This document shows, piece after piece, positions 32,545 through 59,915 of a stretch of 64,000 nucleotides of DNA. The DNA is taken from NCBI RefSeq assembly GCF_044647545.1, contig NZ_CP172818.1; one strand, given 5' to 3'. Every line of letters starts with the position of its first letter. The first letter of the stretch is position 1. The DNA comes from Escherichia coli. GTDB lineage: Bacteria > Pseudomonadota > Gammaproteobacteria > Enterobacterales > Enterobacteriaceae. The notes beneath the pieces are model-generated. The model ran no database searches and had not been told where the DNA came from. It was given only the letters and a program-made list of their open reading frames with translations. A program made the translations under genes and the position numbers.

Positions 32545-32640
32545 ATAAAAAAATAGAGTCTGTCGACATCCGCCAGACTCTACAGTACACACAGCAGTGC
32601 ATCCGCGTCTTAAATCCGGCATGGTCTCCTCTGCGCCGGT
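32545..32640 (-). ncRNA. mcaS: small regulatory RNA McaS (IsrA)
   Basis: Reverse complement reads ACCGGCGCAGAGGAGAC...GAGTCTGGCGGATGTCGACAGACTCTATTTTTTTAT, matching the recalled McaS sequence including terminator hairpin and U-tail; abgR-smrA intergenic location. Confidence 0.8.
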
Positions 32641-36017: not shown

Positions 36018-36139
36018 GCAGGTGAATGCAACGTCAAGCGATGGGCGTTGCGCTCCATATTGTCTTACTTCCTTTTTTGAATTACTGCATAGCACAATTG
36101 ATTCGTACGACGCCGACTTTGATGAGTCGGCTTTTTTTT
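36018..36139 (+). ncRNA. fnrS: FNR-activated small RNA FnrS
   Basis: Sequence GCAGGTGAATGCAACGTCAAGCGATGGGCG...CGACGCCGACTTTGATGAGTCGGCTTTTTTTT matches recalled FnrS, ending in a terminator hairpin plus 8 Ts; zntB-dbpA intergenic location. Confidence 0.8.
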
Positions 36140-38837: not shown

Positions 38838-38888
38838 TATTTCAGTTCTCTGGTACTAAATGGGGCAAATTGGGGGCAAACTTTGCAA

Positions 38889-40119
38889 CTACGATAACCG
38901 CGCATTCAACATGGCTATCTGTTCGTCGTTCATGTCATCAATCCACATACCGTAAATTTCATACACCATCTGCGCAGTTTCATGCCCCATTTGGCTGGCT
39001 ATAAATGCCGGGTTCGCTCCTGCCGTCAACAGCCAGCAGGCAAAAGTATGCCGCGTATGGTACGGATTACGGCGGCGAATACCAGCACGTTTTACTGCTG
39101 CATTCCACCTTGCCCCCAAACTGCTTACCGAGTAATAAGGTTTTTGTTTTCCGTTACACACCCTGGGCATGAAAACAAAATGCAGTTTTTGCTTTTCGGT
39201 TCTGCATACTGCCGATAATAAAAGGTGACGACTTTTGCGATGATGCCCGGTCAGTTTGTATTGCTCCTTCAGTGCTTCAAGAGCAGGCTGCAGTAGTGTT
39301 ACTGTTCGGATCCCGGCATTTGTTTTTGGGGGACCGAACATATCGAGCCCTCGTCAGGTTTCTTCTGACATTCACTATTCCCTTTTCGAGATCCACATCC
39401 TCCCACGCCAGAGCTGCCAGTTCCCCGTGACGAAGTCCTGAGTAAACGGCAAAGTTCCACAAGTTCTCGCTATCTCCTTTTTCACTTTCCATTAATGCAT
39501 TGAATTCTGTTTTAGATAACGGATCAGGCTTTATTCTGTTCGCTGTAATTTTTTTACTCCTTCAAATGGTTTGGTTGATATAAATCCGACTGATACGCAA
39601 AACGCAACAGCGAACAGAGCAAGGCAATATCGTATCAACTGTGCGCACGGTTCTTCCTTTTTTGTTGGATCTTGGATTATCCAGGTAAAGCGTTTCTCCA
39701 TGCAGCAGTTCATTCCGGTAGTTTAAGATATCGCTATAACGAATATGTGATATCGGGGTACTTTCACAAATTATTATTCTGAGTGTTTTTAATTGTGATT
39801 TCGTTTTCTTCATTGTGTTTGTTGTTAACTCTGTCTCTTTAATTTTTGTCCAGATATCACAAAGCTCTCCGAACGTTTTTATGACTCTCGTTGTCACCAT
39901 TTTTGCCCCAGTGCTGGACTGGGGAAAACGTCTTAAATACTCAAATTCACCGGAGTTTATTTCATGAACTATCAGCGCTCTTAAATTTCCGGCCTTTTTA
40001 ATATTACTGTTTGTAATCTCCCAGCCTTTTAATGTTTCCCGACATCGTTTTCCTCGAAACATGAACCAGATGCGAATGTATCTACCTCTAATCTCGACAC
40101 CTGTTGGTAATTTAGACAT
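38889..40119 (-). pseudogene. intR: prophage tyrosine integrase, reading frame broken by at least two frameshifts
   Basis: Three consecutive minus-strand ORF fragments (39562-40119, 39277-39492, 38889-39341) together resemble one tyrosine recombinase (MSKLPTGVEIRGRYIRIWF...; ...LRHGELAALAWEDVD...; ...RHTFACWLLTAGANPAFIASQMGH...EIYGMW). Confidence 0.75.
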
Positions 40120-40120
40120 A

Positions 40121-40336
40121 TCATGAGTCTTTGATAAACTGATTTATCTTTGGATAGTTGTACCAGATAATCCCTCGTTTGCTGTCTGGCTTACCTAAAG
40201 GAGATACTCGTTTGAAGTGGAAGCCCTCCACCCAACAGTTCTGGCGGTATGCTTCAATTTGTCTGGCCCCCAGACCAGTGCGAAGCATCAGGCCGTATTC
40301 AACCATCCACTCTTCATTAAAGATTACTTGTGCCAT
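40121..40336 (-). CDS. xisR: excisionase-like protein
   Basis: ORF 40121-40360; likely 71-aa product from [15 protein letters not shown]...; immediately upstream of the integrase as in lambdoid int-xis modules. Confidence 0.7.
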
Positions 40337-40414
40337 CGCATCACCTCTGGCAGGCGCCAATGTTAGACTGAAATTGACGCCCGATGTTGATTATTAATAA
40401 TCAGCTATGAAGTT

Positions 40415-40696
40415 TTAATTTGAATACAATGCAATTCTCGAGGACTGAAGTTTCTCGCAATTAAAATTTATCAGTTTTACTTTCTGCTCTCTGGAAACGC
40501 CTGCTTCTTTTTTACCTGAGAGCATTTTTTCGCATTCTGATTTCGTTAGTTTAGATTTTGAATATCTTGTCCAGTTAGTAGGAGTGCCACCTTCCTTTTC
40601 AATAGTGGCGGTAATTTTATACATGAACACCTCCATTATTATTTCCAGTGGTTCGTTTATTCCATCTTTCGAGTGCTTCTTTTTCACTTCCACCAT
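40415..40696 (-). CDS. ydaC: prophage protein of unknown function (alternative internal starts give a 69-73 aa product)
   Basis: 93 aa maximal ORF; internal Met candidates (MEVFMYKITATIEKEGG...); overlaps the 3' end of ralR. Confidence 0.6.
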   Translation of the reverse strand: MVEVKKKHSKDGINEPLEIIMEVFMYKITATIEKEGGTPTNWTRYSKSKLTKSECEKMLSGKKEAGVSREQKVKLINFNCEKLQSSRIALYSN

Positions 40697-40811
40697 AACC
40701 GGTTCGGGATTCGCATCCGTTACACTTCGCTCGGTAATATCCTGAAATGGCTTTCACCGTTACTGATGGACAACCACAAAATGGACATGGTTTAACATTG
40801 TCATATCTCAT
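40617..40811 (-). CDS. ralR: restriction alleviation protein RalR (Lar-like), toxin of a type I toxin-antitoxin pair
   Basis: ORF 40617-40850; likely 64-aa product MRYDNVKPCPFCGCPSVTVKAISGYYRAKCNGCESRTGYGG... with Cys4 zinc-ribbon pattern. Confidence 0.7.
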   Translation of the reverse strand: MRYDNVKPCPFCGCPSVTVKAISGYYRAKCNGCESRTGYGGSEKEALERWNKRTTGNNNGGVHV

Positions 40812-40867
40812 AATTTTTCTCATAAAAAATATTTCAAGTTGGCGGTGCATTACACCGCCAGGCTGAA

Positions 40868-41677
40868 TTATTCCTCTGAATTATCGATTACACTGTATTC
40901 CCCGGTTAATACAGAGGAATCTGCAGGATCGATTGTCAGTGGTTCCTTTTCATCCATTGATACTGCACGCTGGATCTCAATTGATACGGGCAAATATTTG
41001 AACAGGCGACGAATAGCCGTTTTCTTTGCCATTTCTTCCCAGTGAGTTACCCACGGCCCGTTATTACCAGCTTTACTCAGGCTGCGCACCAGCTCAATCT
41101 GTTTGCGCGTCATAACTTCAAACTGAGTACCTCCGTCTTTCAGTCTTGCGACAGCATAGACGTGGGTAACCGGGGCATCTTCGTTTTCTCCCGGGCGGTG
41201 TATTAACTTTTCATCAAGGCCAAATTCGAAGCTAAACTCGTCACCTTCACGGACAACACGGGCTGACAGGCTGGCGATTTGACCAGAACGGCGAGCCAGA
41301 TCAATCATGCCGCGATAGCCAATGATTAGCTGAACGTTCTTTTTACCGCTCTTTTCGTTTTTATTACCAAAAGGCAGTAAATATGCATGACCGAGGGCGC
41401 TACCTGGCTCAAGTCCGAGCTGTGAACACTGTACGATCGCACTGACAAAACTCATAGTGTCACAGTTTCCTAACGCCGGAACTTTACGAATTTCTGTGGT
41501 GGCGATACGGATCATACGTTCAGCCGTCATATGGCGTGGAAGAGCTGCTGCCAGTTGCTCTTTCATTGATGGCTGGTTAATAAAACTAATCACGTCGCTA
41601 TTTTTAACTGCTGCTGGTGCACGGTTTCCCTGAGTTTTTTGCAGATCGGCTTTTGCGATTGGTGGTTGCTTAGTCAT
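40868..41677 (-). CDS. recT: single-strand annealing recombinase RecT
   Basis: ORF 40868-41734; likely start [16 protein letters not shown] at 41677; matches recalled RecT. Confidence 0.9.
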
Positions 41678-44312
41678 TTGCATATTCCTTAGCCCAGCGG
41701 GGCAGTGATAATGTCTTAATAGCTGGCCATTCATCGGTATTCAGGCAGTCAGACAGGGTTCGCAGATTGCGGTGATATTCCTGTTGACCTGCCAGTTTTG
41801 CTTCTTCGCCCATCATGAAAATTTCAACCGGATAACGTCCGCATTCAATAGTTGTGCTGGCAACCAGAAAAACGAAAGTTGGCTGCACTCCAAACTGTGC
41901 TTCATAACCGTCACTGTAGAATGCATCCTGAACGTGATAGCGGTAGTCGTAATAAGCGGTTTTGAATCGTTGAATATCCGCCGTAGTTTTCACGTCCATG
42001 ATCCAGTGAAATTCAGGGATAATTTTGTCCGGACGGCACCGACACAAAATTCCTGTTTCAGGATCTTCCCAGTAAATTGATGATTCAGCGTGTCCGGCGC
42101 TTTCAACAAGCCATTGCCCCAGCGGCAAAGCCATAACGCTTTGATACATGAGTTCAATTTTCCGGCCTTCTTCCGCAGTGATAACCGTTTTTCCTGTGCT
42201 TGCGCATTCCATCAGAAACGCTTTCTCTTCTTCTTTTCCGGCGTTTGTACGGCGGTTAAATTCAGGTGCTACGATAAAGCGGTTACTGAATTCTTCCGGT
42301 TCAAGTACCCGGCAGTGGAAAGCAGTTCCTAAATCGAGCGTTTTTGTCTTTGTGGTGTCCACGGGGGCATTTTTACGCCACAAATATAGTGCCGGAGTAT
42401 CAGCAATGTCATCGAGCTGAGACTTACTGATACCGGGACCCGCGTGGTAATTCTCATTCGAAATTCCGTAATAAATACCTGGCTCTATGTCTTCTACGAT
42501 TAAGGGATCTGACGCCTCGCCAGTTTCACTATCGCTGGCATGATGCTGATTGCTGCCAGTGTTCTCCTTGTGCTGATGCGCAGTGCCTTCCATTTCCTCC
42601 AGATCATTTTTCTGAACTTCAGGCTGATTCTCTCCATCGAATATTTCCTGGTATGTTGCGTCACCCATCACCGCACCACAATCAGGGCAGTTGCCGCCAC
42701 CGCTCTGACCGCAGGCGGTGCAGATCTTTTCCGGTTCCTGTTGCACTACTGGTTCAGGTTGTTTCGTTTCTGGCTCGTTTTGTTGCGTATTTGGGCTGTT
42801 TTGTTCCGCTTTCTGGTCGTTCTGTTCCGTTTCTTGCTGGTTCTGGTTCACAGAATCGCGGGTCTGGATCCCCTTAATCCATTTCGGATCATTCGGGTCG
42901 CTAATCCCTTCAACAAATTCACCACGTGATACTGCAAGCAGTTCATCGTCATCGACAGGATTTTTTGATGGAATGTTTTTCCGGGCTTCATGGAGTTCTG
43001 CCCGCAGTTCCTGATATTTCGCATCAACAGAATTTACCTGTGACTGAGCATCCAGCGGCTGCGTGTCCTGATGATGTTCAGTTGCGTCCGGTTCCATTGT
43101 TTCAGCCTCTCCCTGTTCAACTGCCGTTGTTCCAGATGGTTGCGGTTTTTCTTCATCATCCTGTTTTCCTTCTTCTGTTACTCGCTGCGGCATCGGGGCA
43201 GAGGAGCGACCGCAGGCAATATCCACGATTTCCGGATCAGGGTTGGCATGATCGGTTTCAGTCAGTACTTTGTTCAGATATTCAGTGACGTGCGCGGGGA
43301 TGACCTCGATCCCAATTGGTGCTTCTTTTACGGACGCAACCACGATGGCGCGGGAATAATCCAGCCCGCCAGGCATGGTGATGAATTTGTCGCGGAAAAC
43401 AGAAAAGGGCGGTTTATTTTCAGCGATAATTTCCTCAATGCGTTTAGCGTGTGCCGGATGAAGGTTATAGATGTCCAGATCCATTGAACGGGCCAGTACG
43501 CCAGTGGCTACGTCGCGCGCCAGTGACGTCAGATCGTGTACGAAACCTTCGCCGCGATCGGTGAGGTTTCCGCCGCCAGCATTAGCACCGGAAGCCGTGC
43601 GAGTGATGTGTGAAACACGATTACCCTTCATCCACTCTTTTGTCAGCAGTCCTCGATCGGTGTAGTCAGCGTTCAGGTATGCTTCGAAAAAAGCAGTTAT
43701 CAGTCCCAGGTTTGAATTACCAGGATTAGGGAAAACTTTGTCAGTGTCACGAACCAGTTTGTGGAGTTCGCGAATTTCCAGCGGGTCGAGCAGGCTGGTT
43801 TTGTGGGAAACAGCCAGGGCAGTAACAGCCGGTAGTTCTTCAGCCCGAGCAATGTGTAATGCCTGGAGTCCGTCGCGTGAAACGTGCGTTACCGGTTTTT
43901 CGCTGCCGTGTTGAGCAAGCCAACGAATGGGCAGTTCCTGGCCAGAAATTGGGAGTAGCATATTCTCCTCAATCTCAGTCATGTCTTCGCCGTTGACGTT
44001 GGTATTGCCTTGATAGTGAGCGTTGTCTGGTGCTGCTCCCGGTTTTAGTTCCCATGTCATGGAGTCTTTGCTGAGTTGATAGCGTTCACTCCAGGTAAAA
44101 TCGATCTCACCTTCAGCGGGCAGGTCATTAACGACAGGAAAATTCGTGGCAACAGCTTTAAAATAGCTGCTCAGTTTTTTACCTGACTTAACGATCAGGT
44201 AGTCCAGAGTGGCACAGGTCGATTCAAAATCGTTGCTTGCCCACAGGACGACGTCAGGTTCACCGGATGATTTTTTCGCTTTCCGTAACAGGAAGAGTGG
44301 TTTTGTGCTCAT
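41670..44312 (-). CDS. recE: exonuclease VIII (RecE)
   Basis: 880 aa ORF beginning [24 protein letters not shown]; Q/E/P-rich central linker; overlaps recT start by 8 nt. Confidence 0.9.
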
Positions 44313-59340: not shown

Positions 59341-59915
59341 TGGCATTCAGAATGAGTGAACAATCACGTACCGTAAAAATTTATAACCTGCTGGCCGGAA
59401 CTAATGAGTTTATTGGTGAAGGTGACGCATATATTCCACCTCATACAGGGCTGCCAGCTAATTCTACAGATATCGCCCCACCGGAAATTCCTGCTGGCTT
59501 TGTGGCAGTTTTTAACAGTGAAAATGAATCGTGGAATATTGTTGAAGACCATCGTGGTAAAACGGTCTATGACGTGGCGTCGGGGGACGCATTGTTTATT
59601 TCTGAACTCGGACCGCTACCAGAGAATGTCACCTGGTTGTCGCCAGCAGGGGAGTATCAGAAGTGGGACGGCGTATCCTGGGTGAATGATGAGGAAGCAG
59701 AAAAACTGTTTCGGATACGGGAAGCGGAAGAAAGAAAAAGCAACCTGATGCAGGTAGCCAGTGAGCATATTGCGCCGCTTCAGGATGCTGCAGATCTGGA
59801 AATTGCAACGGAGGAAGAAACCCCGTTGCTGGAAGCATGGAAAAAGTATCGGGTATTGCTGAACCGTGTTGATACGTCAACTGCACAGGATATTGAATGG
59901 CCAGCACTGCCGTAG
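59340..59915 (+). CDS. tfaR: tail fibre assembly protein
   Basis: 191 aa ORF whose ATG overlaps the stfR stop (TAATG); Tfa family. Confidence 0.85.

Follow-up and report, generated by a model that had tools for sequence, protein, structure and literature searches.

What restrains the reported toxin RalR in this genome, where is the restraining RNA encoded and on which transcript does it act? The question concerns positions 40415-40850 of a 64,000-nucleotide stretch of an Escherichia coli contig (NZ_CP172818.1; hereafter, the window), which an initial annotation had marked as a ralR restriction-alleviation or toxin locus with an antisense RNA antitoxin expected nearby. We assign this interval to the known ralR/ralA/rcbA module of Rac, a cryptic lambdoid prophage, and read it as a type I toxin-antitoxin pair whose antitoxin acts in trans (probability, roughly 85%). 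The locus is already known: ralR (b1348), ralA (b4714) and rcbA (also ydaC; b1347) are all annotated in E. coli K-12.

Identity and layout of the Rac interval

Direct alignment with E. coli K-12 MG1655 (NC_000913.3) gave 100% identity over positions 39633-42502 of the window, so the K-12 annotation carries over directly. On the minus strand lie recT (40868-41677), ralR (lar; 40617-40811), rcbA (40415-40624) and xisR (40121-40336), in the K-12 gene order recT-ralR-rcbA-xisR-intR. ralR encodes a 64-aa Lar-family Cys4 zinc-ribbon protein, reported to be a DNase toxin, and rcbA encodes a 69-aa DUF1187 protein. The 179-nt ralA noncoding RNA occupies 40440-40618 on the plus strand, the same span in the K-12 annotation and in Rfam RF02694. 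Compared with the K-12 Rac RalR/RalA system (PMC4041452, RF02694), the whole interval is identical, and the gene order and the 16-nt repeat agree; the differences lie only outside it, in intR indels and in the central repeat region of recE. By megablast, the segment 40100-41000 is found in about 1920-1929 of 5426 complete E. coli genomes, with K-12 MG1655 at 100% identity.

Both reading frames of the initial annotation are present. In the open reading frame listing, ralR forms the last 64 codons (MRYDNVKPCPFCGC...GGVHV) of a minus-strand frame at 40617-40850, and the YdaC sequence is contained in a minus-strand frame at 40415-40696. The boundary at 40850 is the start of the longest frame, whereas the annotated ralR start is 40811. 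RalR had also been said to overlap the 5′ region of ydaC on the same strand; this is true, with an overlap of only 8 nt (ATGTATAA, 40617-40624). A GGAGG motif (40634-40630) lies within the 3′ end of ralR, 5 nt upstream of the rcbA ATG.

In the mechanism that we favor, ralR and rcbA, downstream of recE-recT and upstream of xisR-intR, would be translationally coupled on the minus strand by their 8-nt overlap, and the 179-nt RalA would be transcribed on the plus strand from inside rcbA. RalR would be toxic when overproduced, cutting DNA nonspecifically as described in the literature, and less of it would be made when RalA, together with Hfq, pairs through its nucleotides 63-78 with the ralR coding region (PMC4041452).

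Ends, signals and structure of RalA

The initial annotation held that the ends of the antisense RNA could not be placed, which applies only to reading without tools: RF02694 matches 40440-40618 on the plus strand at 225.1 bits (gathering threshold, 170) and covers model positions 1-179 of 179. The expected strand and neighborhood were correct, but the RNA is antisense to rcbA rather than to ralR. RalA lies wholly opposite rcbA; with ralR it shares just 2 nt (40617-40618), in the ralR stop codon. The assignment of RalA as a cis-antisense RNA to rcbA that acts in trans on ralR is supported, with the trans action taken from PMC4041452.

In the work of Guo et al. (PMC4041452), primer extension located the 5′ end at 40440, with RNA expressed from a plasmid that carried the stretch between the ralR start and the ydaC stop (equivalent to 40415-40811), and the 3′ end at 40618 is no more than a prediction based on a weak terminator hairpin. 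The same study followed RalA by qRT-PCR, found by EMSA that Hfq binds RalA and that Hfq is required, and rescued RalR toxicity in trans with pBAD-ralA, which supplies the RNA only. No Northern blot for RalA is reported in that 2014 paper. RalA was seen in all eight conditions of a 2025 RNA-seq study (PMC12266141), and a mapping study of RNase III reported no cleavage at ralR/ralA (PMC6212723). The accessible portion of the Term-seq tables of PMC7815308 holds no entry for a 3′ end at this locus, and our literature search for RIL-seq or ribosome-profiling evidence returned none.

The plus-strand search for a promoter and a terminator that the initial annotation had proposed was run; it found a promoter-like site, which misfits the mapped 5′ end, and called no terminator. 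Read from the sequence, the likely -10 element of ralA is TACAAT at 40425-40430 (plus strand), 9 nt ahead of the 5′ end found by primer extension. All 12 alleles examined keep this element, with TATAAT in four, and no good -35 accompanies it. The best-scoring plus-strand site of the promoter scan, TTGACG-16-AATAAT at 40374-40401 (10 of 12 matches), would start transcription near 40408 and was not part of the plasmid insert on which primer extension was done. Because it misfits the 5′ end at 40440, we rejected it as the ralA promoter and retain it as an alternative only; alleles that have another excisionase lack its -35.

The minimum free energy fold of RalA equals the Rfam consensus and includes a predicted 5′ stem-loop (40441-40478) and a predicted weak terminator (40585-40618) composed of a 6-bp stem (40585-40590/40605-40610), a 14-nt loop and UUUU at 40615-40618. 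The terminator scan called no site on the plus strand, since the 14-nt loop and four U residues of the published terminator fall outside its rules. Relative to shuffled sequences the fold has no extra stability (z = -0.26). Among 25 distinct 179-nt alleles, whose divergence is too low to be decisive, no compensatory pair was found; helices 1, 5 and 6 contain pairs disrupted by substitutions, and 7 of the 13 pairs of the 5′ stem-loop are broken in some alleles. Distant DUF1187 loci score only 24-36 bits with the RalA model and have lost the 5′ hairpin and the terminator stem. We rejected them as carriers of RalA and attribute these scores to coding-sequence homology, not to a conserved RNA. The structure, the terminator and the pairing of RalA have no comparative support beyond Rac.

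Pairing with ralR and its natural variation

In the account of Guo et al., a 16-nt imperfect repeat allows RalA to pair within the ralR coding region, and mutants were made in both partners (PMC4041452). In the window, the RalA pairing region (RalA nucleotides 63-78, TGCTTCTTTTTTACCT) spans 40502-40517 on the plus strand and is a direct repeat of 40674-40689. The target in the ralR mRNA, AAGUGAAAAAGAAGCA, occupies 40674-40689 on the minus strand and comprises the codons for G-S-E-K-E-A. Our repeat search independently recovered 40502-40515 versus 40674-40687, and the pairing region agrees with the T and G at RalA positions 63 and 64 that Guo et al. mutated (PMC4041452). The 16-nt duplex between RalA UGCUUCUUUUUUACCU and its ralR target has a predicted energy of -17.5 kcal/mol and contains 14 consecutive pairs, consisting of 11 Watson-Crick pairs, one G.U and then two more. 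A full-length RNAduplex calculation of RalA versus the ralR mRNA gave a meaningless end-to-end hybrid and was set aside in favor of the longest perfect complement and the 16-nt duplex. Of 2000 shuffles that preserve dinucleotides, 2.7% yield a perfect RalA/ralR complement of 11 nt. Taken alone, the complementarity is suggestive and not compelling, and the functional claim rests on the published experiments.

The pairing was followed through an allele sample made up of 11 diverged alleles from genomes and phages together with 80 IMG/VR loci, which yielded 46 distinct sequences. A 10-nt core, AAAAAGAAGC, is invariant in both ralR and rcbA. This conservation is uninformative, because both sites encode K-E-A in the same frame of conserved proteins. 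At the terminal pair, a double change keeps pairing in one allele (L011), another has G.U (L003) and two have a broken pair (L023, L038). Within the RalA site, position 13 coincides with a third codon position in rcbA and can be A, C or T; pairing there is broken in about 28 of 92 loci. In a distant locus that carries both Lar and DUF1187 genes (L015), we found no complementarity of the RalA/ralR type beyond 8 nt.

Three of the 92 loci have lost most of the RalA pairing core through an in-frame deletion of 12 nt (40498-40509). Among 1912 complete E. coli genomes, about 33-35 share this seed deletion, for example E. coli M3 (NZ_CP010183.1); the carriers come from mouse, human, cat and frog (alleles including L002, L019 and L098-L100). 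Each of four such genomes that we checked encodes an intact K-12-type RalR (WP_001317028.1). Pairing is therefore not conserved wherever the toxin is intact, as the seed deletions and the L015 locus illustrate. Comparison of these genomes indicates that some natural strains can do without the RalA pairing core, which would fit a ralR that is poorly expressed or only mildly toxic in the uninduced prophage.

Other sequence changes cluster at the repeats. The RalA seed contains a T6 run (40508-40513; A6 in the rcbA sense) that is a frameshift hot spot: one allele (L074) has an extra A in the A6 run, and three database proteins (P0039, P0070 and P0076) are frameshifted there. An NCBI sequence on a 125-kb contig (P0082) encodes a 67-aa RalR(1-46)::RcbA(42-62) fusion, equivalent to deletion of 40518-40689. 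Recombination between the two 16-nt direct repeats, both of which read K-E-A in one frame, would be expected to give this product, and such a deletion also takes out the 3′ two-thirds of ralA.

The architecture of the pair can be set beside other type I systems. In the passage of PMC4041452 that compares them, the trans-acting, divergently encoded systems IstR-1/tisB, OhsC/shoB and OrzO/zorO share with RalA a short, imperfect complementarity of 16-21 nt and an antitoxin gene located beside the toxin gene, not opposite the target site. Unlike IstR-1, OhsC and OrzO, RalA pairs inside a coding region, reportedly needs Hfq and is wholly antisense to the conserved rcbA; RalR, in turn, is a soluble zinc-ribbon protein and reported DNase, whereas toxins of the tisB, shoB and zorO type are small membrane peptides. 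SR6/yonT-yoyJ of the Bacillus subtilis prophage SPbeta likewise involves a prophage-encoded antisense RNA, one overlapping a pair of neighboring small genes (PMC5848175). SR6 acts through an extended cis-antisense overlap with both genes, in contrast to the 2-nt ralR overlap and trans targeting of RalA.

RalR, RcbA and competing readings of the module

RalR matches Pfam PF14354 (Lar_restr_allev) at 53.5 bits (cut-off, 28.6) and has the CPFC...CxxC...WNxR signature and the size of that family. The Cys4 assignment of the initial annotation was borne out: C9, C12, C30 and C33 are invariant among 52 single-domain Lar members, as are W50, N51 and R53. HMMER retrieved 909 representative Lar clusters, with tandem Lar domains in many. 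Variable sites in ralR fall 7:5:21 by codon position (p = 3.5e-4). The AlphaFold2 model (pLDDT 80.5) predicts a beta-hairpin and a C-terminal helix; a Foldseek search of this model against the PDB gave no significant match (none with E below 0.3) and no nuclease fold, and the listed entries, all nonsignificant, are mostly zinc ribbons (eIF2-beta, TFIIB/Brf, ELOF1, Rpb9/C11 and ZifS). A PDB sequence search found no solved structure among RalR relatives; CbpD appeared there with chance-level matches only and was rejected as a relative. Two natural ralR alleles may be inactive, one with W50* (E. coli O26 RM10386; L012) and one with its start codon changed from ATG to TTG (CH458; L003).

Experimentally, overproduction of RalR is toxic, and purified RalR cleaves methylated and unmethylated DNA nonspecifically, an activity that the K52Q mutant lacks (Guo et al. 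2014; PMC4041452). Those authors describe RalR as a DNase and deny it a role in restriction alleviation, in contrast to the name of its family. The "restriction alleviation" label has two sources, the name of the Pfam family and King & Murray 1995, who reported such alleviation according to the citation in PMC4041452.

RcbA matches Pfam PF06688 (DUF1187) at 131.7 bits (cut-off, 20.7). Variable sites in rcbA fall 10:6:23 by codon position (p = 9e-4), a bias as strong as that of ralR. DUF1187 homologs of 59-65% identity (P0052, P0054, P0060 and P0063) retain open reading frames of 61-64 aa, and the differences between distant homologs and the window fall at about 15:12:30. The neighbors of DUF1187 genes vary, being a Lar gene in one locus (L015), a Dam-type methylase in another (L016) and unrelated genes in two more (L013 and L017). 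An AlphaFold2 model of RcbA reached a pLDDT of 79.6 from only eight sequences. The RcbA sequence had no match in the PDB, and a likeness of its model to phage p56/p6 was rejected as not significant (Foldseek versus the PDB; nothing with E below 0.3). On these patterns, rcbA is very probably a true gene for a protein, encoded in the same DNA as ralA. Guo et al. could not detect a His-tagged form of YdaC and judged ydaC untranslated, and ydaC DNA still protected when a stop codon was introduced or the start codon was mutated (PMC4041452). Their data show that the RNA suffices as the antitoxin but are no proof that RcbA is not produced.

The length of RcbA differs among alleles. Codon 40436-40438 is AGA (Arg63) in K-12 and in the window; in the first set of diverged alleles, 10 of 11 have TGA, as do about half of the 46 distinct alleles. 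With TGA the commoner state, the usual RcbA would be 62 aa and the 69-aa form of K-12 and the window a 7-residue read-through. The common stop (40438-40436) lies shortly before the RalA 5′ end (40440).

How the three genes relate functionally can be read in other ways. In one, which we consider possible at less than even odds, rcbA is the primary gene and encodes a real DUF1187 phage protein with a role of its own; RalA is mainly its cis-antisense RNA; and the match to ralR is lineage-specific. The 16-nt match would then be partly fortuitous, because both genes encode K-E-A with A-rich codons in the same frame. The codon-position bias of rcbA and its retention as an open frame in diverged homologs speak for this reading, as do the DUF1187 loci without a Lar neighbor (L013, L016 and L017), the confidence of the RcbA model despite its few input sequences, the GGAGG before the rcbA ATG, the frequency of an 11-nt complement among shuffles and the low RalA scores of distant loci. 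The missing His-tagged YdaC, the protection by stop and start mutants and the rescue by RNA-only pBAD-ralA weigh against it (PMC4041452). A related reading, which we put forward only tentatively, is a three-part module: RcbA a genuine phage protein with its own role, shared at 59-65% identity with further enterobacterial prophages of which some lack an adjacent RalR gene, RalA primarily its cis-antisense RNA, and the RalA-ralR pairing a recent addition of the Rac lineage that some strains have lost while keeping ralR. Somewhat less probable, and in our judgment unlikely, is that RalR is natively a phage restriction-alleviation (Lar) protein, its toxicity and DNase activity being effects of overexpression and the toxin-antitoxin label overinterpreted. 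The size of the Lar family and its frequent tandem domains, the invariant Cys4 and WNxR residues, the alleviation ascribed to King & Murray 1995 in the citing text of PMC4041452, a predicted zinc-ribbon-like model with no nuclease fold, the coexistence of seed-deleted ralA alleles with intact ralR and the place of ralR beside recET in an early recombination operon all agree with it. Against it stand the findings that RalR did not inhibit restriction and that the purified protein, but not K52Q, cut both methylated and unmethylated DNA (PMC4041452).

Highly improbable is the proposal that no discrete functional small RNA exists and that pervasive antisense transcription across rcbA accounts for the plus-strand signal. 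It can draw on the weak promoter lacking a -35, the weak terminator, the absence of structural covariation, a fold no better than that of shuffles and the lack of an RNase III site (PMC6212723). However, rescue in trans by the RNA alone, Hfq binding and a 5′ end mapped by primer extension (PMC4041452), detection by RNA-seq in all conditions (PMC12266141) and a conserved -10, improved to TATAAT in four alleles, contradict it. Our preferred reading remains the Rac type I pair with a trans-acting RalA. To the published picture of this pair, the coding signature of rcbA and the seed-deleted ralA alleles add a modest correction, and both bear on whether RalR/RalA is a true addiction-type toxin-antitoxin system or an overexpression phenotype of a phage Lar protein. 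Together, they leave room for a reading in which the RalA-ralR interaction would be a dispensable layer specific to Rac.

Several features of the surrounding sequence were recorded alongside. The recT-ralR intergenic region (40828-40872) contains a GC-rich inverted repeat, GGCGGTG/CACCGCC with a 5-nt loop, whose stem is conserved and whose loop is variable among alleles; no T-run follows directly on either strand. A recT-ralR-rcbA segment 91% identical to E. coli Rac is deposited as positions 1-1183 of PP818812.1 (L011), "Actinobacillus phage vB_Apl-pPE4", in which ralR is unannotated and the host assignment looks doubtful. Relative to K-12, intR (38884-40119) has mismatches and seven single-base indels, including those at 39204, 39228, 39348, 39538, 39585 and 39632, and is split into open reading frames of 150, 71 and 185 aa, which suggests either a pseudogene of the Rac integrase in this strain or indel errors in the assembly. 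The central acidic/repeat region of recE (42400-43000) differs from K-12 in about 110 alignment columns, including a 42-nt insertion, and the RecE open reading frame in the window is 880 aa. RalA is one of four Rfam matches at gathering level in the 64-kb window; the others, McaS/IsrA, FnrS and IS009, lie at 32545-32640 (minus strand), 36018-36135 (plus strand) and 59683-59881 (plus strand).
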